64,000 nucleotides of DNA from Candidatus Woesearchaeota archaeon (GCA_016219865.1 JACRKF010000021.1:2224-66223); one strand, 5' to 3'. Shown: positions 3,851-43,769, counted from the stretch's first letter. Notes: generated from the sequence alone by a model not told the origin. A program made the numbers and translations.

Positions 3851-3897
3851 AAAACAAAAAAAGATCTCATTGCTAATAAATTTTCTTATTTTTTGAT

Positions 3898-3943
3898 GAA
3901 ATTGCAAAATAGAATTGTGTTCACAATTTTATTTTGCAATTTC
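3898..3943. promoter_or_regulatory. 46-bp near-perfect palindrome about 50 bp upstream of trm1
   Basis: The arms are gaaattgcaaaatagaattgtg and cacaattttattttgcaatttc, with a single mismatch. It is a likely operator-type site in the divergent promoter region. Confidence 0.4.
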
Positions 3944-4182
3944 ATATTGGAAACATTTATATATAAGCTTCACCATAAAAATATTTAGAAAAAATTCTAT
4001 TATGTTTTTTCTAAATAAAGAGGTGAATTAAATGGCAGCAAAGAAAAAAAAATCAGGCGCTAAAAAGAAAAAGAAAAGATAATTTTTCTTTTTTTTCTTT
4101 TTTTATCATATATCGCAATTTTAGATCAAAACAACAGATAGTTCTTAGTAAAATTTTTATATAACACTTTTTTCCACTTACT

Positions 4183-5103
4183 ATGCTTGAAAATACCTCA
4201 GAATATCCAATATTTAAGTCAGTAAATGAATTATTAGACAATTCTGCTGAAAATATGGCAGATAGAATCATCTCTGCCGGCATTAAACAGAAAATAGAAA
4301 ACATATTTGCTTTGCTTAAAGGATTGCAGCACAAAACAAAAGTATATGTCGCTTTTTCAGGAGGAGTTGATAGTTCATTGATTCTCAAGCTTGCGCATGA
4401 TGTTTTAAATGAGAAAGTTATTGCAGTTACAGGAATTTCTTCTTCAGTTGCGAAAAATGAGATTGAGATTGCAGCAAGTATATCAAAGACTATTGGAACA
4501 CAGCACATTTTCCTCAATACAAATGAGATGAATGATGAAAATTATTTAAAAAATCCAACAGATCGTTGTTATTATTGTAAATCAGAGCTTTACAAACAAT
4601 TATCTTTATACATAAACAAGGAGAAAGTCACTGATTTTATAATTCTTGACGGCGCAAATTTTGATGACTTGCAGGATTTTCGCCCAGGAACAAAAGCTGC
4701 AAAAGAATTTCAGGTTAGAAGCTTGCTTCAAGAAGCAGAAATGACAAAAGAAGAGATTCGTTTAGTCTCCCATTTATTGCATATTCAAGTATGGGATAAA
4801 CCATCTACGCCATGTTTATCTTCTCGTGTTGCATTTGGTGAAAGAATAACTTCAGAAAAACTTAGTAATATTGAAAAAGCAGAGAATCTAATCCATTCTC
4901 TTGGAATAAAACAAGTTCGTGTAAGATATCATGCAAATTCAATTGCAAGAATTGAAATAGATCCTCTTGATTTCCGAAAAATATTTGAACATTATGAATC
5001 TGTATCAAAAGCGCTAAAACAACTTGGGTTCCAATGCATTACAGTTGATTTAGAAGGATATAAAAGGGGAAACTTGCATTTATTAAATAATAATAATAAA
5101 TAG
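4183..5103 (+). CDS. larE: PP-loop ATP pyrophosphatase, LarE-like sulfur-insertion protein
   Basis: The PP-loop VAFSGGVDSSL is present, along with a conserved Cys motif DRCYYCK. It lies upstream of larB and larC. Confidence 0.65.
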   Translation: MLENTSEYPIFKSVNELLDNSAENMADRIISAGIKQKIENIFALLKGLQHKTKVYVAFSGGVDSSLILKLAHDVLNEKVIAVTGISSSVAKNEIEIAASISKTIGTQHIFLNTNEMNDENYLKNPTDRCYYCKSELYKQLSLYINKEKVTDFIILDGANFDDLQDFRPGTKAAKEFQVRSLLQEAEMTKEEIRLVSHLLHIQVWDKPSTPCLSSRVAFGERITSEKLSNIEKAENLIHSLGIKQVRVRYHANSIARIEIDPLDFRKIFEHYESVSKALKQLGFQCITVDLEGYKRGNLHLLNNNNK

Positions 5104-5202
5104 ATAAAAAACCTAATTACAGATTCCCTATGTCAGAATTGCCAATATCAGAAGATCTTACAAAAAGATTTATTTTTGTAAGATTTTCTAAGAAGTGATA
5201 AA

Positions 5203-5988
5203 ATGAACATTCAACAACTATTAAAAGATTATAAAAAAGGAAAACTGTCTCATAACAAGTTACTATTTCACCTCAAAGAGTATCCTTTTGAAGATTTAGG
5301 ACACACCAAGATAGATCATCACAGAGAGTTGCGCGCAGGCTTTCCTGAAGTAATCTTTGGAAAAGGAAAAACATCAGAACATTTATTCTCAATAATTGAA
5401 AGATTATATCTTAAAAGAGCAGTGATTATCATAACAAAAATCGAGCAAGATATAGCGCAGCAGATTCAGAGAAAATATGATTCTGTTGAATATCACAAAC
5501 TAGCAAAAACGCTTGTTATCTATAATGAATTAAATTTTTCAATAAAATTGAAAAATTTAAAAAAGAAAAAAACACTTAAGACAGGGATTTTAATAATTAC
5601 AGCTGGCACATCGGATATTCCAATTGCTGAAGAAGCTGCAGTTATCTGTGAACAAATGGATAATAAAGTAGAGAAATTATATGATATAGGTGTGGCAGGA
5701 TTGCATCGTTTGCTAGCAAATAAGCAAAAGATATTTGATGCAAAAGTAATTATTGTAATCGCAGGCATGGAAGGAGCATTAGCAAGCGTTATTGCTGGAT
5801 TAGCTAATTGCCCTGTTATAGCTGTGCCAACAAGCATTGGCTACGGCGCAAATTTTAAAGGATTAGCAGCATTATTATCAATGCTCAACTGCTGCTCACC
5901 TGGCGTTACTGTTGTCAACATTGATAATGGCTTTGGCGCAGGCTATGCAGCAAGTAAAATATTGAATGTTAATAAGAGAAAAATTTAA
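5203..5988 (+). CDS. larB: nickel-pincer cofactor biosynthesis protein LarB (PurE-like carboxylase/hydrolase)
   Basis: There is a PurE-like C-terminal domain (ITAGTSDIP...VIAGMEGALASV). The lar gene neighbourhood supports the call. Confidence 0.7.
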   Translation: MNIQQLLKDYKKGKLSHNKLLFHLKEYPFEDLGHTKIDHHRELRAGFPEVIFGKGKTSEHLFSIIERLYLKRAVIIITKIEQDIAQQIQRKYDSVEYHKLAKTLVIYNELNFSIKLKNLKKKKTLKTGILIITAGTSDIPIAEEAAVICEQMDNKVEKLYDIGVAGLHRLLANKQKIFDAKVIIVIAGMEGALASVIAGLANCPVIAVPTSIGYGANFKGLAALLSMLNCCSPGVTVVNIDNGFGAGYAASKILNVNKRKI

Positions 5989-6016
5989 ATAGTCTTATTA
6001 TATAATAGTATATAAT

Positions 6017-6283
6017 ATGAACAAACCAATTATTTTACATAGCCCAACATTAGAATCTGTTTTTATGGTAGAAGAAACAATACAAAAATATAGCCAAGAA
6101 TGTGGCAAGTATCAATTATGGAAAAAATTACCAAAAAAAATGATGTATCAGACATTCCAGATAATTTTAGATTATCTTGAACAATCAGGAAAAATAATCA
6201 TAGATAAAGATGGTTGTATAATTTGGACTTTTAATCCAGAAAGAATCAAGAAAATCTTAAAAGAGGATTTGATTATACGATGA
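6017..6283 (+). CDS. putative antitoxin (small protein overlapping a downstream RelE/ParE-like gene)
   Basis: The 88-aa ORF overlaps the next ORF in the 4-bp ATGA arrangement. No recognisable motif. Confidence 0.35.
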   Translation: MNKPIILHSPTLESVFMVEETIQKYSQECGKYQLWKKLPKKMMYQTFQIILDYLEQSGKIIIDKDGCIIWTFNPERIKKILKEDLIIR

Positions 6284-6615
6284 ATAAAGAGATTTCTGTT
6301 GCATTTATTACCCCTAACATAAAAAAAGAATGGGAAGCTCTTAAAGAAGGAAAATTTGAAGATAAGGAACTTTACAAATTTATTGATAGGGCGATTGATG
6401 ATCTAAAGGTAAATCCAACATGTGGTATAAAAATCGCCAAGAACTTATGGCCAAAAGAATATATCCAGAAATATGAAGTAAGTAACCTCTGGAAATATAA
6501 TCTTCCTAATGCATGGAGATTAATTTACACTATAGAAAGTGATGAAGTAAGAATTGTAAATGTAATTCTCGAATGGTTTAACCATAAAGAATACGAAAAA
6601 CGTTTTAAATATTAG
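6280..6615 (+). CDS. RelE/ParE-family type II toxin-like protein
   Basis: The C-terminal WRLIYTIESDEVRIVNVILEWFNHKEYE matches the RelE/ParE pattern (R.iY....v.il.i.H.k.Y). Confidence 0.5.
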   Translation: MNKEISVAFITPNIKKEWEALKEGKFEDKELYKFIDRAIDDLKVNPTCGIKIAKNLWPKEYIQKYEVSNLWKYNLPNAWRLIYTIESDEVRIVNVILEWFNHKEYEKRFKY

Positions 6616-6650
6616 TTTAAATATAATTTTTACGAACAAAGTGAGTAAAA

Positions 6651-7427
6651 ATGACTAAAAATAAATTATACATTGATTGCCCATCTGGAATTGCAGGTGA
6701 TATGTTTATTGCCGCTTGCATTGATTTAGGTGTTAGTATAAACTATCTTCAAACAGAACTGAAAAAACTAAAGATTGACAAATTCTCAATAGCTGCAAAA
6801 ACTGTTGATAAAAAAGGGATTACTGCAAAACATCTTGAAGTAACTATTGAAAAAAATAATCATGAAAACCATCACCATGATGAAAATCATCATCATGAAC
6901 GCCATCTCTCTGATATCAACAAACTTATTGATGAAAGCTCATTATCTACTGGTGTAAAGATGCTTTGCCAAAAGATATTTCACAAACTTGCTTCAGCAGA
7001 AGCATTTGTGCATAACACAACAATTGATAAAGTTCATTTTCATGAAATTGGCGCAATGGATTCAATTATTGATATCATCGGCGCAGCTATTTGTTTGCAA
7101 CAGCTTGGAATAGATGAAGTGCATTGCTCAGAGATACCAATACCTGCTGGCAAGATTATTTGCGATCATGGTGAAATCTCAAATCCAGCTCCTGCAACTC
7201 TCAAACTATTGGAAGGTTTTGAAACATACAAGGTAGATATAAAAAAAGAAATAATAACACCAACATGAGCAGCATTGCTGAAAACACTGGTAAAAGAACA
7301 AAAAGATTTTGAAATGTTTGAAAAAGAGATGAAAGTTAAAAACATCAAGATAATTAAAAAAGGATATGGCGCTGGCGCAATGGATTTAAAAAAACCAAAT
7401 GTACTACGATTGTTATTACTGAGATAA
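6651..7427 (+). pseudogene. larC: LarC (nickel insertase) N-terminal domain interrupted by an in-frame TGA at 7266-7268; the frame stays open for 52 more codons
   Basis: LYIDCPSGIAGDM, a His-rich stretch (HENHHHDENHHHERH) and HFHEIGAMDSIIDI are classic LarC features. The TGA falls on the conserved Gly of TPT-G-AALLKTLV. After the TGA the sequence still reads AALLKTLV...GYGAGAMDL in frame. Confidence 0.7.
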
Positions 7428-7466
7428 GATTACGCCTATAGCGTAATCTTATCTCAGTAATAACAA
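7410..7466. other. 26-bp perfect inverted repeat with a 5-nt loop (strong stem-loop)
   Basis: tgttattactgagataagattacgc-ctata-gcgtaatcttatctcagtaataaca. It overlaps the end of the larC read-through frame and lies upstream of the GalT-like gene. Confidence 0.5.
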
Positions 7467-7499
7467 ACTATTTTAAACCACAATGCCTTAATTCAGAAA

Positions 7500-8441
7500 A
7501 TGGGAGAGCTTCGCAAGGATTATGTGCTAGAAAAATTTGTAATTATTTCAGATACTCGTAAGGATAGACCGCATGACTTTCATAAGCAACAAAACACACA
7601 AGCAGCTCCAACAAATAAAATCTGCAGTTTCTGTCCAGGAAATGAACTTCTGACAACCAAAGAGATCATGCATATTGAAAAAGATAACAAATGGATTATG
7701 CGAGTTATTCCAAACAAATTCCCAGCATTAGAATTAAAAGGGAAATCGCAGATTACGACAGATAATCAATATTATACATATTCTGATAATTATGGGCAAC
7801 ATGAGATTATTATCGAAACAAACAAGCATGGAGAACAGATATATGATTACAGCAGAGAACACTTCATTAAACTGCTGCATTTGTATAAAGCAAGAATTCT
7901 TGTATTAAACAATAATGAAAAAATTGAATATGTGCAAGTGATAAAAAATCACGGCAAAGATGCAGGCGCAAGCATTGAACATTCTCATTCACAAATATTT
8001 GCTTATAATATGATTCCCATAACTATTCAACAAAAAGAAAAAGCGTGCAAAGATAACTGCGCTTATTGTGAGATTATTTTGCGAGAGAAAGATTCCTACA
8101 GACGATGTTTTGAAAACAATTCGTTTGTTGCCTTTACACCTTATGCATCAAGATTTGCCTATGAAATCATCATATTTTCAAAACAACATAAGCTTTCGTT
8201 AATTGACTTTAGTGATGCAGAAATTAAAGAATTAGCTGAGATCATGCAAAAAATTCTGGCAAAACTCAAAGAGCTTGGGCAAGACTTTAATTTCTATTTC
8301 CAGAATGGAATTAAAAATATGCATTTCCATGTTGAATTTACTCCACGAATAAACATCTTTGCTGGCTTTGAGTTTGCAACAGAAACAGTGATCAATACAA
8401 TCTATCCAGAAGATGCAGCGAAATGGTATCGAGGAGAATAA
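7500..8441 (+). CDS. galactose-1-phosphate uridylyltransferase-like nucleotidyltransferase (GalT/HIT superfamily)
   Basis: A CSFCPGNE Zn motif and an HSHSQIF (H-x-H-x-Q) active-site-like motif are present. 313 aa. Confidence 0.7.
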   Translation: MGELRKDYVLEKFVIISDTRKDRPHDFHKQQNTQAAPTNKICSFCPGNELLTTKEIMHIEKDNKWIMRVIPNKFPALELKGKSQITTDNQYYTYSDNYGQHEIIIETNKHGEQIYDYSREHFIKLLHLYKARILVLNNNEKIEYVQVIKNHGKDAGASIEHSHSQIFAYNMIPITIQQKEKACKDNCAYCEIILREKDSYRRCFENNSFVAFTPYASRFAYEIIIFSKQHKLSLIDFSDAEIKELAEIMQKILAKLKELGQDFNFYFQNGIKNMHFHVEFTPRINIFAGFEFATETVINTIYPEDAAKWYRGE

Positions 8442-18188: not shown

Positions 18189-18455
18189 ATGGATAAGATT
18201 AACAATATAAAAGAATTAAAAGACAAAGCAAGACTTCTTAATCCAGCCGTAAGAATAGGAAAATCTGGGATTACTGAAAATCTTCTAAAAGAAATTCGAT
18301 TTCAACTAGAACAAAAAAAACTTATAAAGATAAAATTATTAAGCGCAGCATTATCACAGATGGAAAAAAAGAAAACAGCAGATTTAATAGCAGAAGAAAC
18401 AAATGCAAATATAGTGCAGATAATAGGCAATTGCGTAATTCTGGCTAAAAGATAA
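18189..18455 (+). CDS. YhbY/CRM-domain RNA-binding protein
   Basis: VRIGKSGITENLLKEI...IVQIIGNCVIL matches the CRS1/YhbY domain. Confidence 0.75.
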   Translation: MDKINNIKELKDKARLLNPAVRIGKSGITENLLKEIRFQLEQKKLIKIKLLSAALSQMEKKKTADLIAEETNANIVQIIGNCVILAKR

Positions 18456-18502: not shown

Positions 18503-18540
18503 AGTATTTGCTGAATGAGTGAAGCGAATTCGCAAATACT
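18503..18540. repeat. 38-nt hairpin repeat, family B (copy 1, reverse orientation)
   Basis: agtatttgctgaatgagtgaagcgaattcgcaaatact. Related copies at 22411 and 25509. Confidence 0.7.
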
Positions 18541-18608
18541 AAATAAATACTAAAAATATATAAAGTAGAAATTCTTAGTAAAGTAAAAAAACTAAAAAAG
18601 GGGTAATT

Positions 18609-20108
18609 ATGAGTGAAGGAAGCTCTGATGGTTCAGAATTACTAAAAAGATTTGACTTCAAGGATAAAAAAGGGGAAGCTGATGAAGAAGATATAGAACT
18701 TGGCAGGGATAATGCTGGACAATATATTACAGGTAAGACTGGCTATCCAAAGCCTCTGAAAAGATATAGAATCATTTATCAAGTATTTAATCAATCAATA
18801 GAAGAAACATATTTCTGGCTTTTAGAACATCTTCGTCATGATCAAGGATTCCATGATATTATAAAGATTACAGACACATTTACTGCATCAGAACATTCTG
18901 CTTTTTTCGGAAGCGCTCAGCAAAGAATTGGTTTGCAGCAGGATAAAGTATCGCAATTTCTCGCAACTATTGGAAAAATGATTAAAGAATTATTTCAATT
19001 AGTGCGAGAATTAAGAATATTAGATGAAAGATTGCAATATTACAACGATAGTTATACAGAAAGCAAAAGCAGGGAAAGCGCAGAGATAACATTAAAAGGA
19101 ATCTGGATTGACTTAGTAGAACAAGGTTCAAAAAATCCTGCATCTGTTTATGGTATGGCAAGAGAATTGCAATTTACAACATTGCCTGATTTATTCTTTT
19201 CAATCCACCCGCGAGAACCGGAAGATGTTGATGAGATGATTAATGCTCTTGACTTTAATAAAAAAGTAAGAGAAGTTCTTAAAAGAAAATTACGAACATA
19301 TTTAGATTGGAAAAAAGCAACATTTAGTGAGTTAAAGAATAGAAGAATCTTCACAATAAAATATTTGCGGCAGCACTTTGAAATAATAAAAATGTACATC
19401 AGCTGGGTTAAACCATATCTCAGAAACATTCGTCGTCTGGAATTAAGTGATAAAACAAAATCTCCTGATTTAATTGCTGCATTCGAAGGTTCAATAATTG
19501 AAATAGAAATATTATGCCAAAAAATGCCAGTTGAACTAACTACAAATAGAATGGAGCGAAGAAATAAAAAGATAAAATCAGTCGTTCTCTTGACAATCAT
19601 GTACAGAAGCAAGCCGTCATTATCTTATCAACAAGAATATCAGCGAGGCCCAATTCATGTAGGATTAACTGATATTACATTGCGTACTTATGCTTGGGAA
19701 GATAAAGAAATACAGAATTACATCAAAATGAGAGAAAAAGAAGATTTAGAATTATTAAAATCTGTAGATTCTTCTGTAAAAACAGCAATGGAAGCATTAG
19801 GAGATGAATTAGAACGATACTTAAAAGAAGCAGGTGATGAAACTGCTTTTGAAAAGAAGAAAGATGAACATCATGAAAAGAAAAAAAAATCATTCATTGA
19901 AAGTTTTCTAGGAACATTTATTTCATTCAAATCCTCTTCATCTCATGGTAAAAAAGATAGTCATGGAAAAGGAGATAGTCGTAATGAAATAAAACTGCCA
20001 GAACCTATGTTAGATACAGAAAAAGATACTGCAAAACGAGCAGCTGGTGACGCAATCTGGCAAACTTACAAAAACTATAAGAAGAAGGAGAAATTACTCA
20101 ATTGGTAA
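18609..20108 (+). CDS. hypothetical protein (499 aa) with a K/E-rich low-complexity C-terminus
   Basis: Strong RBS (AAAGGGGT). No recognisable motif. Confidence 0.5.
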   Translation: MSEGSSDGSELLKRFDFKDKKGEADEEDIELGRDNAGQYITGKTGYPKPLKRYRIIYQVFNQSIEETYFWLLEHLRHDQGFHDIIKITDTFTASEHSAFFGSAQQRIGLQQDKVSQFLATIGKMIKELFQLVRELRILDERLQYYNDSYTESKSRESAEITLKGIWIDLVEQGSKNPASVYGMARELQFTTLPDLFFSIHPREPEDVDEMINALDFNKKVREVLKRKLRTYLDWKKATFSELKNRRIFTIKYLRQHFEIIKMYISWVKPYLRNIRRLELSDKTKSPDLIAAFEGSIIEIEILCQKMPVELTTNRMERRNKKIKSVVLLTIMYRSKPSLSYQQEYQRGPIHVGLTDITLRTYAWEDKEIQNYIKMREKEDLELLKSVDSSVKTAMEALGDELERYLKEAGDETAFEKKKDEHHEKKKKSFIESFLGTFISFKSSSSHGKKDSHGKGDSRNEIKLPEPMLDTEKDTAKRAAGDAIWQTYKNYKKKEKLLNW

Positions 20109-20122
20109 ACTGATGAAAACAA

Positions 20123-20689
20123 ATGACTGATGAAAAACAGAAACAAACAACATTAAGCAGAGAAGAATTATTAGCATTATCACCTGAGGAAAGAATAGCA
20201 AAATTAAAACAGTTTGAAGACGAGAGGAAGAAAAATCTTGATAAAGAAATCGCTGAGGCAAAAAAGGTTTTAGAAGACACAGAAAGAGAAATAAAACAAA
20301 AAAAAGATCAGCAATTAACTGATGAATTGATGCGAAGAAAAATTCTCGAGGAAAAAGCGCAACTGCAAAAGTCACTAGAAGAAACAGTTAGACAAGAATC
20401 TCCTCAGCGAAAAGAAGATCTTCCCCAACAAGCTGAATACAAAACAAATGTTAATTACATGGTTGATATGTACACTAATTTAAAAAACATTTTAGATACA
20501 GGATTACCGCTTAATCCATATGAACGAGCAAAAGTTGAAGACATTTACAATATTATGAACCAACTTGCCAATCAAAATCCTCATGAAAATGCAGACAGAC
20601 AGACAATTGATGACATTACACATGCAACAAAAAGAATAATTAAAACATTGCTTGGCGATTATCAGAGCAATGTGAAGTATAGTCCTTAA
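20123..20689 (+). CDS. hypothetical coiled-coil protein
   Basis: 188 aa, charged coiled-coil N-terminal half. Confidence 0.5.
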   Translation: MTDEKQKQTTLSREELLALSPEERIAKLKQFEDERKKNLDKEIAEAKKVLEDTEREIKQKKDQQLTDELMRRKILEEKAQLQKSLEETVRQESPQRKEDLPQQAEYKTNVNYMVDMYTNLKNILDTGLPLNPYERAKVEDIYNIMNQLANQNPHENADRQTIDDITHATKRIIKTLLGDYQSNVKYSP

Positions 20690-20716
20690 ACTTTTGTTTC
20701 ACAAAAATTTATAAAT

Positions 20717-21337
20717 ATGAATACGATAAAAAGAGTTATTATGAATGAAAAAAGGAAAGCAAGCAAAAAGAGAAATAAAAAAGCCCAAACATGGTCATTA
20801 GAAGTATTTATGGCAATGATGATTTTCCTTATTGCAACTGTTATGTTTTATGCTGTTATTTTTACAGCGCCAAAACACAAAGAATTAACAAAAGAAGCTG
20901 AATTAATAACTAAATCAATTGATACAAATGAATTATTTGAAGACGGGATGTTAACGCAAGAAGAAGCTGAAAAACTGTCAGGTAAAACATGCAATGAACT
21001 AAAACAAATGGTCAACACTAACAAGAAAATCTGTATTTATTTTAAAGATCAAAGCGGCAATATAGTTCCATTATCCGCAGAATATAATGTAATTGGCTGT
21101 GATGGCATTACAGTTGGAAGCATTGAATGCACAGCTCCAAAACAATCAAATGCATGCGATGACGGTGTTCAAAATGGAGACGAAGAAGGAATTGATTGCG
21201 GTGAAATCTGCGGCAATGAATGCGCGCAAGCGCCTGCAACACCTGAAGATACTCCTATCCCTTGTGAAGAGGATTACGAATGTCCTTCTGGCATGATATG
21301 CGATACTGTATCAACATGGATATGCGTAGCTGCATAA
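20717..21337 (+). CDS. putative archaeal type IV pilin-like (class III signal peptide) protein with a Cys-rich C-terminal domain
   Basis: A basic N-terminus followed by KKAQ-TWSLEVFMAMMIFLIATVMF resembles a prepilin/DUF361 signal. The C-terminus carries 12 Cys (CDDG..CGEICGNEC..CEEDYECPSGMIC). Confidence 0.5.
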   Translation: MNTIKRVIMNEKRKASKKRNKKAQTWSLEVFMAMMIFLIATVMFYAVIFTAPKHKELTKEAELITKSIDTNELFEDGMLTQEEAEKLSGKTCNELKQMVNTNKKICIYFKDQSGNIVPLSAEYNVIGCDGITVGSIECTAPKQSNACDDGVQNGDEEGIDCGEICGNECAQAPATPEDTPIPCEEDYECPSGMICDTVSTWICVAA

Positions 21338-21637
21338 ATTTTATGTGCAACTCTTCAATAGACTTAAATGGGAAAGACGGTTTTTTATATGCAGATTCAA
21401 ATCAATTTCTTCATCGTGCAACTGCTTTATTGTTGCGAAATCAATTCAATCAAAGAATGAAATACAAAAGCTATGCTTATGGAGATATTCTAGTTCCAGA
21501 AAAAGTAGATAATTGTGGTTTGCCAAGAAGACTATATATCAATCAACAGAGATTAATTGGATAAAAAAGAGAATGATAATAATAATAATATAAAAAAAGA
21601 ATAAATAAAAAATCCAAGAAAATTGCAATTGAATTTT

Positions 21638-22216
21638 TTATCGCAGCAACCTATCATTTGCTCGATTGCTTGGTCTTACTTTCTCAGCGCCAACACCTTT
21701 TCTATGCATGCCTCTTCCTCGCCTTGCAGCAGAAGTTAAGCCTCGATAGACTCTTCCTGTGTGTTGTTTTTCTGCAATCCATGACAATTTATGATCTGAT
21801 TTAATTGCAGGATGATTTTTATCAATTACAATTACTTCAAACCAATAATAATCTCCATCTTTAGCAACCCAATAACTGTTAAGCACTTCACAATTAGGAT
21901 ATTTATCTGCTGCTCTTTCTTCAGCTATTCTTTGATAACTTTTTTTCAGAACCATATGCATGCCAAATCGTTTTGGTTTTCTTCCGCCATCTGGTTTTGG
22001 TTTCCAATGGCCTCCTCGCTGCACTCTTTGACGAACAACAAGAATTCCTGGTTTTGCTCTATAACCTAAAGAACGAGCTCTATCCAGCCTAGTTGGCCTT
22101 TCAATTCTAAATGTTGCAGGTTCTCGTCTCCATTCAACAAGCCTTTGCTGCATCACTTGTTTTATTGTATCATCTGGTTTTTTCCAAGCTTCTCTGATAT
22201 ATTGGTATAATCCCAT
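21638..22216 (-). CDS. rpl15e: 50S ribosomal protein L15e
   Basis: [14 protein letters not shown]... matches L15e. The ORF-track start is TTG; ATG at 22216. Confidence 0.9.
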
Positions 22217-22308
22217 TTTCTTTGCCTCCAATTACTTGCTATTATCTATATATCTATATTATAGAGTGCAATCGCCTAACATATTCGACATGTTCGGATT
22301 GCCCAACT

Positions 22309-22339
22309 GAGAAAATTTTGCAAAAATGCAAAATTTTCT
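22309..22339. repeat. palindromic repeat, family A, copy (agaaaattttgca-aaaa-tgcaaaattttct)
   Basis: 13-bp arms. Flanked by the attgcccaactga motif shared with other copies. Confidence 0.7.
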
Positions 22340-22410
22340 TTAATCTTCAGGTAAGCAACTACCCACATTGATTATAATAGTATAGATTTAAGGTTTATTT
22401 ATAAATATTT

Positions 22411-22448
22411 AGTATTTGCGAACTCACTTCGTTCGTTCAGCAAATACT
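22411..22448. repeat. 38-nt hairpin repeat, family B (copy 2)
   Basis: agtatttgcgaactcacttcgttcgttcagcaaatact. It abuts the stop of the 22448..22774 gene. Confidence 0.7.
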
Positions 22449-22774
22449 TAAAATAACCTAATCGAAAACAAATACAAAAACGCAGCCCAAACCACTACAA
22501 TGATAACAACCTGCAATATCCAAGCAAGAAATGCGCGAAAATAACTTAAATCAAACATTATAGTATAGACAAATAAAAGAGCAAATAAAGATATAACCAA
22601 TGAATAGATGGGAGTAAAATAAATATTTATTGCAAATGTAAGAACAGCTACTATAATATTAACAATTACTACCCTTAATAATGTAGAATGTCCAGATAAC
22701 ATTTTCACAGCTAAATTTAAAGGAATTGCAGAAAGCGCAAATACTAATATTAACCAGAGCAATGTATCAATCAT
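22448..22774 (-). CDS. hypothetical small membrane protein
   Basis: 108 aa, 3-4 transmembrane helices. Confidence 0.5.
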   Translation of the reverse strand: MIDTLLWLILVFALSAIPLNLAVKMLSGHSTLLRVVIVNIIVAVLTFAINIYFTPIYSLVISLFALLFVYTIMFDLSYFRAFLAWILQVVIIVVVWAAFLYLFSIRLF

Positions 22775-22807
22775 AAATAAACAAATTATTGTTATAATAT
22801 AAATAAT

Positions 22808-23320
22808 TTATTGATTTTTTTTCTTAAAGTGAGAGATAATATCTTGCGTAAGTGATTGATGACTATAAATTAAATTATAGAATTGAGTTGCGCCTGCATT
22901 GATTGCTGCATCTTTTGCAACAAGATGCTGCCCAGAAAAACTATAAAATAAATTTGTATTATAAGAAGTTGCAAATATTGTTGTATCTTTATTTACTGAA
23001 TAAGGTTTTCTTAATTCTTCAATGAAATATTTCCCCATTTTCCAATTTTCTTTAGAATCAGATATTTCTCCAAGAATCTCATCAATTACAGGATTATTAT
23101 TATATTCTCCTGGTAAGACTGACATATTTAAAACAATTAAATTTACTTTCTCAACAAGAAGTGTGTCAAGAACAGGATAAACTGCTTCATGAAATGTTGG
23201 TCTAATTTTATGCTTTGCAAGATCTGCAACAATCTCATCTAGATTAGCATGGTCATAATCTAACCACGGAAAGAAAATAAGTCTTCGTAATTGTGGTGGA
23301 AATTTCAATACTTTTCCCAT
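22808..23320 (-). CDS. hypothetical protein
   Basis: 170 aa. Downstream of the PAC2-family gene on the same strand. Confidence 0.45.
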   Translation of the reverse strand: MGKVLKFPPQLRRLIFFPWLDYDHANLDEIVADLAKHKIRPTFHEAVYPVLDTLLVEKVNLIVLNMSVLPGEYNNNPVIDEILGEISDSKENWKMGKYFIEELRKPYSVNKDTTIFATSYNTNLFYSFSGQHLVAKDAAINAGATQFYNLIYSHQSLTQDIISHFKKKNQ

Positions 23321-23364
23321 AATGATTCCCCCAAATCGAGAGAATTTTGTAAAATTCTCTTCAA

Positions 23365-24231
23365 TTAACCAATATAATTAGCATCAGTTGATAATTGTTG
23401 TTTTAATTTATTTACAGCTGATTGTTTAGAAACTTCTTCTAATTCTTTTGTTGTTTTTAACATTTCTTCTTCCAGATCTTTAATTTCTTTATCTAATTTT
23501 TTGATATCTATTTCTAATGATAATTTCTTATTTAAAATAGTAAGAATTTCCTTAGCTCCTGCTATTCCCAATGACATAGGATGCGCAAGTGTTTCTGCAA
23601 GAAGTGTTGCTGCTGGAACTTTCTTTTTTCCAGCCATTCCTAAAAGAACACCAGATACACCAATAATAGGCCCAATAATCCCATACAATTTGTTTTTTGC
23701 AGCTGTTCCTATTACATATTTCTGGATAATCTCTTTATTATTGCCAGTGCAATAAACTTGCGGTGGATTACTTACTTCCATAAGACCAACTCCGCCAAGC
23801 GTAATTATTTCTGTGCCTTTGAATTTCAGAAGAAGATCTATAATAGCATCACAAAACTCATAGCAACTTTCTTCATCAATTGGTTGAATATCTCCTGTTA
23901 AAATAATAAGATCATTAGTCTTTCCTTTTTTTGTAAAACGTTTGTAATAAATTTCAATTGTAGGTAATTCTATAAGATTATTTTCATTAACAAATACTGA
24001 ATGAGGAAACTTATAAGAGAAGACATCATATATTTTTACAGCTTTTAATTGCTCTACAATAAAATCAGCTGTAACCTTGCCAACATTACCTATGCCAGGC
24101 ATACCTTCTATAAGAATTGGATTTTTAAGTTCTGGAATCTTTCCTATTTGAGTAAATTTCCAAGTCATTATAATCATCTCATTTAAATTGTCCAAATATA
24201 CAGATTGCCACTCAACCCGAATTACACTCAT
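23365..24231 (-). CDS. PAC2-family (proteasome assembly chaperone-like) protein
   Basis: ILIEGMPGIGNVGKVTADFIV and IILTGDIQP match the PAC2 family. It occupies the conserved position downstream of nop10. Confidence 0.7.
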   Translation of the reverse strand: MSVIRVEWQSVYLDNLNEMIIMTWKFTQIGKIPELKNPILIEGMPGIGNVGKVTADFIVEQLKAVKIYDVFSYKFPHSVFVNENNLIELPTIEIYYKRFTKKGKTNDLIILTGDIQPIDEESCYEFCDAIIDLLLKFKGTEIITLGGVGLMEVSNPPQVYCTGNNKEIIQKYVIGTAAKNKLYGIIGPIIGVSGVLLGMAGKKKVPAATLLAETLAHPMSLGIAGAKEILTILNKKLSLEIDIKKLDKEIKDLEEEMLKTTKELEEVSKQSAVNKLKQQLSTDANYIG

Positions 24232-24282
24232 GTCCGAACTGCCTAATGCTATAATTGTCTAAAAACAGCAGTTTCTGGAAAA

Positions 24283-24456
24283 TTATAAGATATTATTATC
24301 AACCAATTGCTGTTTTTTTATTTCCCTTCTATATTTTGCGTATTTATCCTCAGGAGAATATTTTGCTGGCTTCATATCAATTGCTTTTTTGCCGCAATTG
24401 CATAATTGCTTTATAGTATATGTTTTGCAGATAGGACATCGTAGTATATGTTTCAT
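24283..24456 (-). CDS. nop10: H/ACA RNP subunit Nop10 (57 aa; absent from the ORF track)
   Basis: Hand translation gives MKHILRCPICKTYTIKQLCNCGKKAIDMKPAKYSPEDKYAKYRREIKK. A CPxC...CxCG zinc ribbon plus SPEDKY..KYR matches Nop10. It directly follows aIF2alpha, as in most archaea. Confidence 0.85.
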   Translation of the reverse strand: MKHILRCPICKTYTIKQLCNCGKKAIDMKPAKYSPEDKYAKYRREIKKQQLVDNNIL

Positions 24457-24468
24457 GATAAAACCTTT

Positions 24469-25254
24469 TTATTTTGTTTCAGCGCGGATAAATTCATATT
24501 GAGAATTGATATTCTTTGTGGATTTTTTGACAATTTCGAGCATTTCTTTGATGATTGCTTCAGCTTTTTTATAGTCATCTTGTTTAACAATTATTTTGTA
24601 TATTCCAGCGCCAGCATATTTTATATCCACTGCTTTTTTCCCATATTCAGTCAATTTTTGGAATAGATGTGTGATGATCTCTAGACCATTGCTTTCATAA
24701 GTCTTAAAATGAAGATCTCCCTTGATTGTAACTTCAGGTTGCTTGATTCTTTGCTTAACTGTTTCAACAAGAATCTTTTCATATTCTTTTGGTATGTTTA
24801 ATTCTTTTACATCAACAATTTCAGCAACAATTTGCTCAAAGAATTTATGCAGATAACTATATTTTTTAAAAATAGGTGTTGCAATATGTTCATAAACTTG
24901 CCTTACATCGCGTTTTGTTGTATGCGCAACAACTTCTATAATTTTCTCTGCAATCTGCTCTAATTTCATCTCGTTTATCTTTGTTTTTCGCTGCATATCA
25001 GTTACTCTGCGCAATGATAAATCAATATGACCGCGTTCTTGATCAATTCTAAGAACCATGCAAACGACAACTTTGCCTTCTTTAATGTATTCATTGATAT
25101 TCCTAATTCTGCCAGCTGCAACTTCGCTAATATGAATCATTCCTTTAAGATCATATTCATCTATTGTTGCAAATACAGAATGATATTGAATCTTTGTAAT
25201 AGTGCACATCACTATTTCATATTCTTGAGGTAAATCTTTCTTTCTATAGAACAT
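24469..25254 (-). CDS. eif2a: translation initiation factor aIF2 alpha subunit
   Basis: An S1 domain (EYEIVMCTI...GMIHISEV) and a central helical domain are present. The ORF-track start is TTG; ATG at 25254. Confidence 0.9.
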   Translation of the reverse strand: MFYRKKDLPQEYEIVMCTITKIQYHSVFATIDEYDLKGMIHISEVAAGRIRNINEYIKEGKVVVCMVLRIDQERGHIDLSLRRVTDMQRKTKINEMKLEQIAEKIIEVVAHTTKRDVRQVYEHIATPIFKKYSYLHKFFEQIVAEIVDVKELNIPKEYEKILVETVKQRIKQPEVTIKGDLHFKTYESNGLEIITHLFQKLTEYGKKAVDIKYAGAGIYKIIVKQDDYKKAEAIIKEMLEIVKKSTKNINSQYEFIRAETK

Positions 25255-25267
25255 TATTTTTACTCCT

Positions 25268-25453
25268 TTATTCAAGCACTTCTAATACTCGTGCTTTTAT
25301 CTTTGATTTTCCGCCTGTTGGTTCTACTAAAACCTTTTCACATACTAAGCATTTCACCATTGTTGCGCTTTTTCCAAATGTAATCTGCTCATTTTTACAT
25401 TTAGGACATCGTATTTTTACAAATTTACTGTTTGGTTCACGTACTAATAACAT
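25268..25453 (-). CDS. rps27e: 30S ribosomal protein S27e
   Basis: CPKCKNEQ...CLVCEKVL is the C4 zinc finger of S27e. 61 aa. Confidence 0.85.
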   Translation of the reverse strand: MLLVREPNSKFVKIRCPKCKNEQITFGKSATMVKCLVCEKVLVEPTGGKSKIKARVLEVLE

Positions 25454-25508
25454 ATTCTTAACCTCCTAACAATATAGTATAAGAATAAGAGGTGATATAA
25501 AAAGTTAT

Positions 25509-25546
25509 AGTATTTGCGAACTCGCTTCGCTCGTTCAGCAAATACT
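25509..25546. repeat. 38-nt hairpin repeat, family B (copy 3)
   Basis: agtatttgcgaactcgcttcgctcgttcagcaaatact, about 30 bp downstream of the MutS-like gene end. Confidence 0.7.
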
Positions 25547-25577: not shown

Positions 25578-27515
25578 CTAGCGTATCCTGCTTTTAGCAG
25601 CCTGAAACACATGCTCAGGGAGAACACTTTGAACTGAGATGATACCATAATGCAGACCAATTGCTTCTGCTGGCGCTTCTTGCTTTGTATAACTAAATCC
25701 ATTGCCATTAGAACTCAAAGGAAATAAAGAAACTTGTACTGATGAATTTACCCCTAAGTCTCTAAGATTAGGAAAATGTGTTGGAAGAATTGCGCGAACA
25801 CCTTTATTGAGAAAAGTGTTTTCTGCAATTGCATATAAGATTGCTGCGCCGTCATCTGCTCTTGTTGCAGTTCCCTATTCATCTAATACCACAAGACAAT
25901 ACGATTCACAACCTGTAATCTGCTCATACAGCTCTTTGATTGCTTGTTTTTCAGCAGCAAAACTGCTTTTAATATTTGTTCCTACTTGCCTATGCCTTAC
26001 AAATATTCTTTCATGGATTGAGATTGTAGCAGAACTTGCTGGGACATATAATCCAGCCTGCGCAAAATTCACAAGTATTGCAGCCATATCAGCATAGATT
26101 GACTTTCCTGCTTCATTTGGACCTTCAACTATCTCAACAAGAGTATCGTGATTAAGATAGACGCTATTTGGCATTGGTTTGGAAACATGAAGGAAAGGAT
26201 TTAGGCCATTTTCAATATTGATTATCCTTTCTTCTTTTGGAACAATTGTAGACCTTACCCTTTTTTTTTCTTTAAAAAATTTTGCTAATCCTGCATACAA
26301 AGCAATCTCTTTTTCAATTTTTTTAAAAGAAGTTGTAATATATCTAAATTTCTCGAGGGAATTACGTTCCCCAAATAGATGATATAACTCTTTAGCATCT
26401 TTTGGATCTGCTGCTATAATCTCTTGCAACTTCTTTTTTAATGAAGAAATTCCTTTCTCTTCATTCTTCATTATATGATCCACAGCTCTCTGTATACGAC
26501 CAAGTTGCGGAACATCAGCATCAGTAAGATCTGGAAATGAGATGCTTTCCAGATTTTGAACAACATTTTTTACATTTTTCATAAATTGTTCATAACAAAA
26601 TTGAGCAACATCTTTAGCTTCTTCTGGATCAAAGAGATAGGTTCCACCATCTCTTGATTGGATATTACCCATCCTATGACCATGTTTAGAATGTTTATTC
26701 ATAAATCCTATCCCTGCTTTTCCTTTATAGCACTGAAATAGATCCATGACAGACCAAAGAAGAGCTTTCATAGTAGAATCGAGAGAGATGCAATCATTTT
26801 TTGTCAAAGATTTTAAAAGATCGTCATTAACCATAAAATAATTGATTGCGTCAGTTCGTTGAGCAATAAGATTTCTGTCAGTCAATGGATTAAGCACCCA
26901 ATCAGCAAGTTGAGGTTTGTCTAGATCATATCCTGAAAATAATGCATTAAGCAATCGTGGAGTTGGTTTTTCCATAGTAAAGAAATAACCAAATGTCTTT
27001 TCTGTATCACCACCATAAAGCGCATTATAACTTTCATGATCAAGAACTGCACTATGTAAAAAACTAAGCGAATCATCTTTAGGTAAACTCCCTTTTACTA
27101 ATTGAGGATGCTTTGTATATGATAGATCAATCTCATCAACAAGAACAACAATATTGCCATATTTAACAGAATCCATATTAATTTTAGGCGCAATCACTAT
27201 ATCTGCAGATTCAAGACGAGCTTTGTATCTTTTTGGATCAAGAGAAAACTTTTCAAGAGGAATACTGGACATCCTCATTTTTGTTTGAACAAGAGCCTTG
27301 TAAAGAGAAAGTGCTTCCTTTATATGAACAGGGATATGATCATCACGACGTGAATCATACTTTCCATAATTAAGAGAATCGAGATCATGTTTCCCATTAA
27401 CTTTTGAAGCAATAGTCCCTACAAAAACTGCGCTTAGATTATGATGCAATTCACTCCTTAACTCAAGAATTTTAGCTCCAGTTTCTAATGTTTGTATTTC
27501 CTCTTCAAGCGTCAT
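25578..27515 (-). pseudogene. MutS-family ATPase (domain V) interrupted by an in-frame TAG at 25875-25877; read-through would give about 645 aa
   Basis: Walker A GPNEAGKS. The sequence reads ...SYCLVVLDE-[TAG]-GTATRADDGAAILYAIAE...THF, which matches MutS LLDE-I-GRGTSTyDG...TH. No MutS domain I (GDFYELF) is present. Confidence 0.7.
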
Positions 27516-30990: not shown

Positions 30991-32379
30991 TTAATTGTGA
31001 TTTAATACCTGATTCAGATTATGGTTGCCTTTATCACTAATACCATATCTTTCTCTAACAATTCTTTCTTCTCTATCAGTTAAGCGAGATAATAGTTGTT
31101 TTAATCTAAAACTATCATCTTTTACAAGAGCAGAATCATCAGCTGAAACTGATGCTGTATTCTCAAGCACATCATAATAAGTCATTTCTTTTCCTGTACC
31201 AACGGCATCATCAAGTGAAGTAAGTGTTAATCGTTTTTTGTATTCATCATATGTTTTTTCATCAAGATACTTCCTTTTGCCTGTTATTTCCATCTCATAC
31301 TCTAAATCTTCAAAAGTTCTATGCTTTCTTTCTATCTCTCTATAAGTTGCTGCAAATTTCTCTTGCGCATGCACAGGAGTGCGTATAGTCTTATTCTGAT
31401 CTATAATTGCGCGAGTTACTGCTTGCTTTATCCACCATGTTGCATATGTTGAAAATTTATATCCTCTCTGCCCATCAAATTTTTCTACTGATTTCATTAA
31501 TCCAGTATTTCCTTCTTGAATTAAATCAGAAAGAGTCATATTGTCCAATAAATGAGTGTATTTCTTCGCAATTGAAACAACAAGACGAAGATTTGCATTA
31601 ACAAATTTATTGCGAAGTGAGAAATATTCTCTAAGATCTCTGCCTATGGAAATAAGATCCTCCTTGTAAGCATTATGTATTCTAAATGCTCTTGCATTCC
31701 CAGCTAAAGAATCACCTAATTTATTTTCATAAAACTCCATATAATGACAAGCTGCTGCCTTAAACAAAGAATATGAATTAAAATAAAATGAAGGATCAAC
31801 ACCAAAATCAATGATCTCTTTAAGAAATTCTTTTCCATACTCTACTTTTCTAGCAACAGATGGAATTATTCTGCCATATTTCAACCTTTTTTCACCCAAT
31901 ACCGGGATAATTTCTAAATAAAAGCTTTCAACTGCTTTACGCATTTGATCATATACATTACCATCTTTTTCTACCTCGCCTTTATCAGTTACTTGTTCTT
32001 CATCTTCATTACTTTCTTGAATATAACCCTGTTGTTCAGCATCGCCATTATCAACTTTCTGTTTAGAAATTGCATAAGCAACTCTTTTCTCTAAACGAAA
32101 AACTTTTAACAATGGTTGAAGAACATATTCTGGATTTATACCATAAACTTTTCCGATAAAAGAACTTCTCACTTCACGAAGTCTTTGGGAAAGATTAATT
32201 TCTTCATCTCTTGTTAGTAATTTAATTGCGCCCATACTTTTCATATAAGTAGAACAAGAATCTGAATCAATAAGTTCAGAACCATTAGGCCGAGAATCAC
32301 CTGGAATATAAATACCCTCTGCATAATCATCTAATCCTAATGCATGAATTCTATTCTCCAACCCCACAATCTCTTCCAT
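30991..32379 (-). CDS. bacterial-type sigma-70 family protein (regions 1.2, 2, 3, 4.1), apparently lacking the region 4.2 recognition helix
   Basis: Region 2 [11 protein letters not shown]...[41 protein letters not shown] is nearly identical to the RpoD consensus. Region 1.2 ([16 protein letters not shown]) and region 4.1 ([15 protein letters not shown]) are present. The ORF ends right after NLNQV. Confidence 0.8.
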
Positions 32380-42259: not shown

Positions 42260-42406
42260 TATTCAGAGTATGTGTTTAGCACCCTAAGGTCGAAATTCAA
42301 TCGATTTCTCAACGAGAGCGTCGCGAGGGGATGCTCCATCCGGGAACGCAGCTCCTTAGGAAATCCCGTCGAGAATTTCGAAGGTGCTAAACACATACTA
42401 TTCAGA
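42260..42406. mobile_element. GC-rich 131-bp element with perfect 16-bp terminal inverted repeats flanked by an 8-bp direct repeat (tattcaga). MITE-like insertion, or alternatively a structured ncRNA
   Basis: The structure is tattcaga|gtatgtgtttagcacc...ggtgctaaacacatac|tattcaga. The core has nested complementary segments (tcgaaattc/gaatttcga, cgaggggat/atcccgtcg, ctaagg/ccttag) and is about 55% GC in an about 30% GC genome. Confidence 0.4.
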
Positions 42407-42530
42407 TAATATTCTCGAGTTTGTTTCACTCACTCAGAAAATAATACTCTTATACTTAAATTAATAAAGAACTTATATGCGCATAGGAAAAGACAAGATT
42501 TAAATTAACCTATTAAATAGTATTTTCTGT

Positions 42531-43769
42531 ATGAACGAAGTGAATACGAAAATACTTAAGATCAACAAAACACCCTGGCATTCATGGTGCACTGGAAAGA
42601 TTTCAAAAGGCTGCGCATATTGTGTGCAAGGAAGAAAGTTAGTGTTATTTATCACAGGATTATGCCCGCAAAGATGTTTTTATTGCCCTGTAGGAGAACA
42701 AAAGTTTGGCAATGATGTTGTATATGCTAATGAATGGAAATTAGAAGATCCGAACAATCCTGTTGAATTAATAAAAGAAGCAGAACTAACGCAAGCAAAA
42801 GGCGCTGGAATTACTGGCGGAGATCCATTGATGAATATTAAGAGATGCTGCAATTATATCCAATTATTAAAAAAAAAGTTTGGAAAAGAATTTCATATTC
42901 ATTTATACACGCCATTGAAATTAGTAACAAAAGAAAGATTACAAAAACTATCTGCTGCTGGACTTGATGAGATAAGGTTTCACCCTGATTTAGATGATAA
43001 TTCTTTATGGAACAGGATTAAAATTGCAAAAAAGTACAGATGGGAAATTGGTATAGAGATTCCAGCAATTCCCGGATATGAAAAAAAAACAATGAGACTG
43101 ATTGATTACATTATTTTTGCAGACTCCCTATTGCCCGAATTGCCTAATGAGGAGAATTTTGCATTTTTGCAAAATTCTCCAAACAAAGTATCATTCATCA
43201 ATCTTAATGAACTTGAACTTTCAGATACTGAAACAAAACATTATACATTGCCAACAAAAGGGTTTAAGGCAAAAGATAATATTAGTTATGGTGTAAAAGG
43301 AAGCAAAGAGATGGCAATAAAAATGCTGGAATATGCTAAAGAAAAAGGATTATCTGCGCATTTTTGCACTGCAAGACTAAAAGATGGTATACAAGTCAAG
43401 AAAAGATTACAAATTAGAGCAGAAAACATTAAATTACTATTTGATGAAAAAACAGAAGATGGAACATTACTGCGCTGCTGCATATACCTCCCAGAACTTG
43501 CGCCAGGAATGAATTATAGAGAAAAACTAAGAAACGCTGATAAAAATGATTTTATTGAAAAACTAACAGTTATTCGCAATAAATTATTAGAAACTTTAAC
43601 ATTAAGTGAAAAAGAAATAGTTATTGATTCAAACAAATGCAGATTAATCATTCCAAGAAGTGTTGCAAAACAATATGCAAATAAAATAAAGAAATATAAT
43701 TTACTTCCAGCATTAGTTGAAGAATATCCTACTCAAGATGGATTTGAGGTTGAGATTGAATTTTTGTAA
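42531..43769 (+). CDS. radical SAM domain protein
   Basis: The CPQRCFYC (Cx3Cx2C) motif is preceded by a CAYC motif. The gene contains an in-frame copy of the family A repeat at 43120-43180. Confidence 0.7.
   Translation: MNEVNTKILKINKTPWHSWCTGKISKGCAYCVQGRKLVLFITGLCPQRCFYCPVGEQKFGNDVVYANEWKLEDPNNPVELIKEAELTQAKGAGITGGDPLMNIKRCCNYIQLLKKKFGKEFHIHLYTPLKLVTKERLQKLSAAGLDEIRFHPDLDDNSLWNRIKIAKKYRWEIGIEIPAIPGYEKKTMRLIDYIIFADSLLPELPNEENFAFLQNSPNKVSFINLNELELSDTETKHYTLPTKGFKAKDNISYGVKGSKEMAIKMLEYAKEKGLSAHFCTARLKDGIQVKKRLQIRAENIKLLFDEKTEDGTLLRCCIYLPELAPGMNYREKLRNADKNDFIEKLTVIRNKLLETLTLSEKEIVIDSNKCRLIIPRSVAKQYANKIKKYNLLPALVEEYPTQDGFEVEIEFL
43120..43180. repeat. palindromic repeat, family A, copy inside a coding sequence (ggagaattttgca-tttt-tgcaaaattctcc, plus the conserved left flank cagactccctattgcccgaattgcctaatga)
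   Basis: It is read in frame as ...DSLLPELPNEENFAFLQNSPNK... within the radical SAM protein. Confidence 0.7.

Follow-up and report, generated by a model that had tools for sequence, protein, structure and literature searches.

Small covarying hairpin repeats beside archaeal promoters in Woesearchaeota, possibly a family of very small palindromic DNA elements

A 64,000-nt stretch of DNA from Candidatus Woesearchaeota archaeon (GCA_016219865.1 JACRKF010000021.1:2224-66223), referred to here as the window, has a G+C content of 31% and carries genes including those for L15e, aIF2alpha, S27e, Nop10 and PAC2. A 38-nt hairpin repeat occurs three times in it with no more than three mismatches between copies, and the chance expectation for such a 38-mer is 0 matches, as judged from 100 dinucleotide-preserving shuffles. 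The copies lie where a preliminary description of this DNA had placed them, and each is, as described there, within 50 bp of the stop codon of an upstream gene, provided that an in-frame TAG in the MutS-like gene is read through. The copies and the genes that adjoin them are given below, where ORF stands for open reading frame and L014 is a contig of a close relative (JAGVYW010000033.1).

18503..18540, minus strand (the consensus strand being the minus strand): copy 1, 68.1 bits, 47 nt past the YhbY/CRM stop codon and about 13 nt before a TATA-like box (18554-18565) of the gene for a 499-aa protein.
22411..22448, plus strand: copy 2, 67.9 bits, its last base within the TAA stop codon (22448-22450, minus strand) of a 108-aa ORF, hence 0 nt past it, and its other end separated by about 5 nt from TTTATAAATA, the TATA box that precedes L15e (minus strand, about 22396-22405).
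25509..25546, plus strand: copy 3, 69.6 bits, 32 nt past the true stop codon of the MutS-like gene; CTTTTTATATC, the TATA box of the S27e-aIF2alpha-Nop10 cluster (minus strand, about 25494-25504), is about 4 nt away.
18189..18455, plus strand: gene with a YhbY/CRM domain, located upstream of copy 1; L014 has neither the gene nor the copy.
22448..22774, minus strand: 108-aa membrane ORF, its stop codon adjoining copy 2; the L014 ortholog stops with TGA and is without the hairpin.
25579..27515, minus strand: MutS-like gene (domains III and V) with its true end at 25579-25581; the whole gene and copy 3 are missing from L014.

When the copies are set in a common orientation, their consensus reads AGTATTTGC-GAAY-TC-RY-TTC-RY-TC-RTTC-A-GCAAATACT. 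The hairpin consists of an outer stem of 9 bp, a single bulged A, an inner stem of 4 bp, a TC/TC 2x2 internal loop, 2 bp and a TTC triloop. On the opposite, purine strand, the internal loop is a tandem G.A (GA/GA), the triloop is GAA and the bulge is T. GAAT/ATTC in copy 1 corresponds to GAAC/GTTC in copies 2 and 3; this paired change had been noticed earlier and is real, and a second compensatory pair distinguishes copy 2 from copy 3 (AC/GT versus GC/GC). One cell of copy 1 is C.A, which becomes a U.G wobble when read on the opposite strand. Folding of the three copies predicts that both strands adopt the hairpin, at -7 to -12 kcal/mol as DNA and -9.5 to -18.7 kcal/mol as RNA, and the fold z-scores of the full copies range from -4.1 to -6.0.

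A covariance model built from aligned copies (R1) was run over the window and related contigs and matches five copies in the window, two of them new, and 10 more in the related contigs. The two additional window copies and a short relative are as follows.

42517..42558, minus strand: copy 4, 54 bits, E=7e-10, a subfamily member whose stems are AGTATTTTC/GAAAATACT (outer) and GTAT/ATAC (inner); the ATG annotated for a radical-SAM gene (42531) overlaps with it, and the copy lies downstream of the TATA box of this gene (about 42497-42506).
42406..42447, plus strand: copy 5, 34 bits, E=4e-5, degenerate, converging on copy 4 at 70 nt and directly following a GC-rich 134-nt structured element.
6623..6655, minus strand: short relative, 20 bits, an 8-bp stem with the same apex (TCACTTTGTTC), adjoining the LarC start codon.

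The short relative has an ortholog in L014 (930-960, apex TCACTTCGTTC), and both exemplify weaker relatives of the family that retain the apex on different stems. Pattern scans detect copies in the metagenome contigs L002, L003, L005 and L007 of the Joint Genome Institute (JGI) and in the GTDB representative JAGVYW01 (RIFCSPHIGHO2_02_FULL_32_12; contigs L009-L011 and L013), and copies are also present in L012, a contig binned as Methanosarcinales. R1 adds second copies close to those in L002, L007 and L012, as well as an ortholog of copy 4 in L021. Across the copies of the JGI, JAGVYW01 and L012 contigs, the inner 26 nt are nearly invariant, and the outer stems differ in sequence and always pair over 9-12 bp (TAATTTTTGC/GCAAAAATTA, TAATTTATGC/GCATAAATTA, AAAATCTGC/GCAGATTTT). 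A pattern demanding AG...CT ends has no matches in the genome contigs; a looser core pattern yields the JAGVYW01 copies. Rfam gives no match at the gathering threshold over the whole window and none of relevance at E<=1 in 18.3-25.7 kb and 42.15-42.65 kb. Scans for tRNA and tmRNA return nothing relevant, a literature search on the repeat sequence itself found nothing, and exact-protein look-ups for the 108-aa ORF, S27e and P0121 retrieve no record.

Several structures in the neighbourhood of these copies deserve mention in their own right. The 134-nt element adjoining copy 5 (42269-42397) has a perfect 17-bp terminal inverted repeat (AGTATGTGTTTAGCACC) with a direct repeat (T)ATTCAG on both sides, and its outermost 5 nt on each side (AGTAT...ATACT) match the hairpin ends. 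Its predicted RNA fold reaches -58 to -60 kcal/mol on either strand (z about -6.8); it has no Rfam or tRNA match and is single-copy in all sequence compared. It could be a transposable element of the miniature inverted-repeat type (MITE) or an unknown non-coding RNA. Between the LarC-like and GalT-like genes, at 7410-7466, there is a perfect inverted repeat of 26 bp (TTGTTATTACTGAGATAAGATTACGC / GCGTAATCTTATCTCAGTAATAACAA), its arms 5 nt apart, that has no sequence kinship with the hairpin family. In one metagenome, L003 (1-68) and L005 (90-160) are identical in the hairpin and the right flank and differ in the left flanks, explained either by a breakpoint at the repeat (recombination or variant) or by the joining of two copies during assembly.

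Covariation was quantified in an ungapped MAFFT alignment of 9 copies (A1) and in an alignment of 15 copies (A2). In A1, 97.9% of cells are paired and 8 of 16 pairs carry two-sided changes; in A2, which includes the copies added by the covariance model, the stems are still paired (95.4% of cells) and two-sided changes extend to 12 of 16 pairs. None of 500 shuffles is as high in either alignment, and in slid-partner controls only 23-47% of cells pair. Selection on the hairpin fold, which the preliminary description had read from a single paired change, is therefore well supported and more strongly than was first seen. Substitutions affect 6 of 115 cells at unpaired internal positions (bulge, TC/TC loop and triloop) and 90 of 476 paired cells (Fisher p=1.2e-4), indicating that the stems are constrained in shape and the unpaired bases in sequence. 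Wobble pairs are typical of RNA helices. On the consensus strand, one one-sided (wobble) change is seen versus 39 two-sided cells, two C.A cells would be wobbles on the other strand, and many of the two-sided changes are transversions. The near absence of wobbles, together with the transversions, suggests that both strands stay Watson-Crick, so that a DNA palindrome fits better than an RNA helix.

The hairpins fill a narrow slot between the upstream stop codon and the transcription factor B recognition element (BRE) and TATA box of the next gene, and sometimes provide start or stop codons. Their most regular feature is a BRE/TATA-like box, which in nearly all same-sense copies starts 4-15 nt past the hairpin. 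A strict TTTAWATA begins 3-12 nt downstream in five of the eight same-sense copies, compared with about 1-2% for a random intergenic window position, and the distance from the upstream stop codon to the hairpin varies from 0 to 118 nt. The hairpin position is tied more tightly to the downstream promoter than to the stop codon before it. That the repeat is always at gene 3' ends, as had been stated, is true of the three copies first described but not of the wider family, in which copies also occur at start codons and between divergent genes. The pair at 42.4-42.56 kb of the window lies between divergent genes, and the L021 ortholog of copy 4 likewise overlaps the radical-SAM ATG downstream of the TATA box. 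L007-3255 provides the last codons and the stop codon of a 1226-aa ORF. Nor is the orientation relative to the flanking genes constant: it is mixed across the family, at about 8 to 5. The purine-apex strand is the sense strand for copies 1 to 3, L011, L002-2570, L007-2964 and both L012 copies, and the opposite orientation is found in L003/L005, L007-3255, L009 and L002-3301. Where two copies lie close together they are convergent in all three cases (window 42406/42517, L007 2964/3255 and L002 2570/3301), with spacers of 70, 250 and 690 nt.

These positions bear directly on the proposal that the hairpin is an RNA-level element of the 3' untranslated region (3'-UTR), transcribed at the end of the upstream gene and serving as a terminator, 3'-end stabiliser, processing site or protein-binding motif. 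Copies 1 to 3, at 0-47 nt past stop codons, share one orientation relative to their genes. For their transcribed, purine-apex strand, the predicted RNA folding energy is -15.4 to -18.7 kcal/mol, an advantage of 2-3 kcal/mol over the other strand, and the sole odd cell of copy 1 is a U.G wobble on the transcribed strand. A conserved loop and bulge on covarying stems are the classic signature of a protein-bound RNA hairpin, and the placement of L011 between the EF-2 and EF-1alpha genes and of L009 at 10 nt after an Lrp gene also counts in favour of this proposal. However, this proposal does not account for the mixed orientation of the family. Copies 42517 (with its L021 ortholog) and 6623 are at gene starts, at or downstream of the promoter, so that the sense transcript holds just half the hairpin. 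A run of at least five T follows two of the eight same-sense copies, and a terminator scan flags none of the three copies first described as terminator-like. Furthermore, G-U pairs are nearly absent, no Rfam family matches, and the copies are missing from L014 despite conserved flanking genes and promoters. The earlier suggestion of a terminator, 3'-end or small-RNA element thus retains position, shared orientation and RNA folding in its favour for three copies, but the family as a whole speaks against it. The hairpins are probably not a dedicated 3'-end RNA element, and we regard an RNA-level function as their defining property as unlikely.

L014 is 92% identical to the window in the amino-acid sequence of the 499-aa protein and collinear with 5.3-33.4 kb of the window, and it is without all three copies. 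Because they are missing from so close a relative, the copies behave as insertions or deletions. At the copy 2 site, the flanks share about 97% identity, and where L014 has GTTAATC the window has a 44-nt block:

window ...TTTATAAA|TATTT[copy 2]T|AAAATAAC... versus L014 ...TTTATAAA|GTTAATC|AAAATAAT...

The L014 gene for the 108-aa protein ends in a TGA stop codon 5 nt from the TATA box, which is retained at the empty site. From this alignment, the hairpin with its outer stem would have been either inserted alone or precisely lost. The idea that a core was inserted into a pre-existing hairpin is ruled out for copy 2, as the empty site in L014 has no hairpin. Judged from the aligned sequences, the copies are gained or lost as discrete units between close relatives.

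The other two copies adjoin larger differences: copy 3 is 0-4 nt from one junction of a 2.1-kb MutS-like segment that L014 lacks, and copy 1 is about 16 nt from one junction of the YhbY segment. This raises the possibility of a recombination module that shuffles gene cassettes, in which hairpin units, with or without the promoter, are crossover points for single genes, in the manner of the promoter early stem-loop (PeSL) terminator/promoter cassettes of T4-type phages or of attC and dif use. Consistently, the L002 pair brackets a 199-aa metallophosphoesterase gene, two direct copies in L012 bracket three-gene PIN toxin-antitoxin modules, and L003 and L005 diverge on one side of a shared hairpin and flank. 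Such indels are documented for PeSLs (PMC2839356, PMC4122927), which, like the hairpins, are repeated stem-loops right beside promoters in short intergenic regions, at gene indel junctions of close relatives. However, copy 2 stands at the same promoter-proximal site as a solo insertion. As it fills this slot without cargo, slot preference or tolerance can account for copies 1 and 3 lying at segment edges; preference for the TATA slot alone would put copies beside indel junctions, and a cassette mechanism is not required. Moreover, the inserted window genes carry one copy and not two flanking direct copies, most other indels between the window and L014 are copy-free, and the only homolog found of the MutS-like gene (53% identity) has no hairpin. 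Unlike in PeSLs, the promoter lies outside the repeat, as the TATA box at the L014 empty site indicates, genes are not bracketed by two direct copies, and the host is a cellular archaeon.

The comparison with integron attC sites and with the hairpins of IS200-IS605 insertion sequences (and the related palindrome-associated transposable elements, PATEs) leads to a similar result. Structure-based recognition, a conserved extrahelical base, a place at the 3' end of cassette genes and the use of single-stranded DNA are points of likeness. In contrast to attC, there are no R''/R' cores (RYYYAAC/GTTRRRY): GCGAAC/GTTCAGC does not fit, and the GAAT/ATTC copies lose GTT. The hairpins are 38-44 nt long, whereas attC sites measure 57-141 nt, and they form no arrays beside intI but are scattered among core genes in mixed orientation, with two direct copies in L012 only and no integrase seen. 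Unlike IS200/IS605 ends, the close pairs are inverted and not direct, and no Y1 transposase is seen among the window ORFs. A recombination module is therefore, in our judgement, quite unlikely.

Other features of the window and of the related contigs are noteworthy. The window and L014 share about 80-84% DNA identity with at least eight gene-sized indels or replacements, among them toxin-antitoxin and abortive infection (Abi) modules, an AAA_14 ATPase, a block of three genes (2.3 kb, 14.86-17.2 kb) and an ORF of 170 aa (22.8-23.36 kb) that has a window-specific hairpin of its own at about 23339-23360. The MutS-like gene contains an in-frame TAG at 25875-25877 (minus strand) where its homolog (P0242, 635 aa) has Trp. 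This codon falls in the Walker-B region (VVLDE[W]GTATR), about 98 further codons can be read in frame up to 25579, and the NCBI annotation covers a 546-aa part only. A recent nonsense mutation (TGG to TAG), an error of assembly or readthrough could each explain the TAG. A protein of 462-474 aa with bacterial sigma-70 region 2 and region 4 domains (Pfam, L014 ortholog) is encoded next to MutL at 30991-32379 (minus strand) of the window and at 19019-20443 of L014. Upstream of L15e, 64 nt from the TATA box (22342-22405, minus strand) are about 97% identical to L014, compared with about 82% for the flanking genes, and are followed in the window only by a perfect 13-bp hairpin (22311-22338); this stretch may be a conserved leader or a small RNA. 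In L012, a 1537-aa FG-GAP-repeat ORF (3053-7663, plus strand) carries an intein (Pfam Intein_splicing, aa 201-931), whose interior holds two three-gene PIN-type toxin-antitoxin modules on the opposite strand (3898-5580, minus) and both hairpin copies. The plus frame is open over the full 4.6 kb, with two stop codons in frame 1, both before the ORF start, versus 87 and 204 in the other frames. Antisense genes within an uninterrupted intein ORF are very unusual.

The inner part of the hairpin recurs in unrelated viral contigs. The inner 20-mer pattern GAAYTCRYTTCRYTCRTTCA matches 13 IMG/VR contigs, about nine of them independent, and the reversed control pattern matches three. At the three degenerate pairs, six of nine independent viral hits show full complementarity, against an expectation of 1 in 8. 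These hits are mostly intergenic and without the long outer stem, and the full-length patterns have 0 matches in viral contigs. Among the viral contigs, L025 carries a phage late sigma factor gene, and L035 carries collagen-like tail fibre and serine invertase genes together with at least five hairpins in which the apex TC-GC-TTC-GC-TC sits on unrelated stems. On the purine strand, the apex is RY-GAA-RY, with the exact sequence GCGAAGC in copy 3 and L011. Mini-hairpins of the d(GCGAAGC) type show exceptional DNA stability and are found repeatedly at origins of replication and transcription, at priming sites and in hairpin promoters (PMC13037366). The apex and its recurrence in viruses therefore suggest that the conserved unit is the mini-hairpin, which in Woesearchaeota is set inside a longer palindrome. 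The likeness to the d(GCGAAGC) mini-hairpins of phage and plasmid origins and N4 promoters lies in this apex; the apex of the hairpins differs from them in being embedded in a dispersed repeat with flanking tandem G.A pairs and no apparent origin or primase context.

Two viral contigs have further local structure. At 1130-1680 of L035, hairpins with the apex TCGCTTCGCTC occur as tandem pairs repeating 327 nt apart, and a 26-nt inverted repeat is present at 1633-1658 / 1972-1997; this may be an invertible or regulatory region. In L030 (57% G+C), four tandem CGAAC-N4/5-GTTCG palindromes, which are Cheo-box-like, and two TGTTAGAG..TATAACA palindromes adjoin the 20-nt core hairpin (segment 2238-2316), an arrangement that resembles an operator or an origin.

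A double-stranded operator or upstream activating site, bound by a dimeric transcription factor on the inverted repeat just before BRE/TATA, would fit the tight position 4-15 nt before TATA boxes, the conserved inner inverted repeat TGCGAAY...RTTCAGCA and the tolerance of either orientation expected of a near-palindromic site, but it is very unlikely: the outer stem varies freely yet stays complementary, which a duplex-reading protein would not require, conservation is highest in the asymmetric bulge and the non-palindromic apex, the flanking genes are functionally unrelated with no regulon-like neighbour set seen, and some copies lie downstream of the TATA box, within the intein ORF or in viral contigs. 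By inspection, the hairpin is not a K-turn or K-loop (no 3-nt bulge beside the tandem G.A), a bulge-helix-bulge splice motif (paired 3-nt bulges are absent), a hammerhead core (CUGAACGA does not fit CUGANGA) or a Cheo box (the spacing is wrong), and a tRNA T-arm, origin recognition box (ORB) sites, dif sites and sequencing adapters were rejected likewise. It is also neither a hairpin plus oligo-T terminator, given the terminator scan and the two of eight same-sense copies with at least five T nearby, nor a CRISPR repeat, as the copies are 3-17 kb apart or in inverted pairs and form no regular array with unique spacers.

We class the family with the small palindromic repeats; it is of interest chiefly for lying next to promoters, for a mini-hairpin module that viruses share and as a marker of recent genome change in DPANN archaea. 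We put at roughly even chances the reading that the hairpins are very small (about 38-44 nt) palindromic DNA elements, akin to repetitive extragenic palindromic (REP) sequences and MITEs, that are dispersed in the intergenic DNA of a woesearchaeal (DPANN) lineage. Like REP sequences and their doublets (REPINs, or bacterial interspersed mosaic elements, BIMEs), they are imperfect palindromes of 20-40 nt in intergenic DNA, often just past stop codons, in both orientations and often in convergent pairs, and they show within-family compensatory changes and presence/absence differences between relatives. All five copies in the 64 kb are intergenic or overlap ORF ends. A GTAG or CGTC tetranucleotide at one end is a criterion for REP sequences (PMC3733652), whereas A1 and A2 have no such tag and the flanks are (T)TA/(A)TA. 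No RAYT gene (REP-associated tyrosine transposase; Y1 HUH, TnpA_REP) is among the window ORFs scanned, and RAYT subclasses are not reported in Archaea (PMC6006769). Further differences from REP sequences are the A/T-rich and not G+C-rich stems, the conserved apex and bulge and the DPANN archaeal host. With MITEs, both Stowaway/IS630-type ones with TA duplication and archaeal ones, the hairpins share a non-coding nature, an outer stem that forms an inverted repeat, mostly TA...TA flanks and indel polymorphism, and a woesearchaeal genome is among the archaea densest in MITEs (PMC11602168). In contrast to MITEs, they are only about 40 nt long, which is under the usual MITE size, and their ends vary while the centre is conserved, although it is the ends that a transposase reads in MITEs. 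They also have no autonomous partner identified in the window.

Each hairpin is built of two parts, an inner 20-nt module conserved in sequence and an outer A/T-rich stem of 9-12 bp conserved in pairing alone. If the hairpins are such palindromic DNA elements, they would act when a single strand is folded, in all likelihood as DNA extruded into a hairpin or cruciform, whose unpaired nucleotides may be read by a trans-acting protein, such as a transposase, a recombinase or a primase-like factor, or used for fast fold-back. The site just upstream of promoters would be tolerated or targeted. Presence in 3'-UTRs would then be a by-product of where insertions are tolerated, and a secondary role as an RNA 3' hairpin may exist there.

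Several observations weigh against this interpretation. No transposase, recombinase or HUH gene is found by Pfam in 40 window ORFs, nor by eye in the remaining translations, and no insertion sequence occurs in the window. No clean target-site duplication is apparent: most copies have TA...TA on their flanks, which is itself part of the palindrome, and the L014 empty site is a 7-nt replacement. Copy 4 is kept at the orthologous site in L021 at 78% amino-acid identity, which suits a host function as well as selfish spread. Many copies appear to be old and not recent transpositions, because the outer stems differ between loci. Quasi-palindromes can gain compensatory changes through template switching. 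Since this process yields such changes mechanically, covariation alone is no proof of selection, and the argument for selection comes from the persistence of the bulge and the internal loop. The strand-asymmetric cells are few and contradictory, with two for the purine strand and one for the other, and, as regards DNA versus RNA, the purine-apex strand is 2-3 kcal/mol the more stable of the two when folded as RNA.

A bolder version of the palindromic-element interpretation would combine it with gene movement. Here, the hairpin would be a structure-specific site, read as extruded single-stranded DNA just upstream of archaeal promoters, and a substrate of a recombinase or primase-like enzyme that moves single genes (YhbY, MutS-like, phosphoesterase and toxin-antitoxin modules) into and out of core clusters. 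With its 20-nt module shared with archaeal and bacterial viruses, it would represent an integron-independent, promoter-targeting cassette system in DPANN archaea. We consider this a long shot.

The genomes of DPANN archaea are tiny and tightly packed, and little is known about their gene gain and loss and the organisation of their intergenic signals. In this setting, the hairpin family is a well-defined covarying repeat that marks recent insertions and deletions between close Woesearchaeota relatives, with a fixed place relative to promoters and an inner module recurring in viral contigs. Even if it is only a selfish palindrome, a tempting annotation as a terminator or small RNA is corrected. 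The repeat is also a handle for finding the enzyme that reads the hairpin, for testing DNA mini-hairpins at archaeal promoters and replication sites, and for strain typing.

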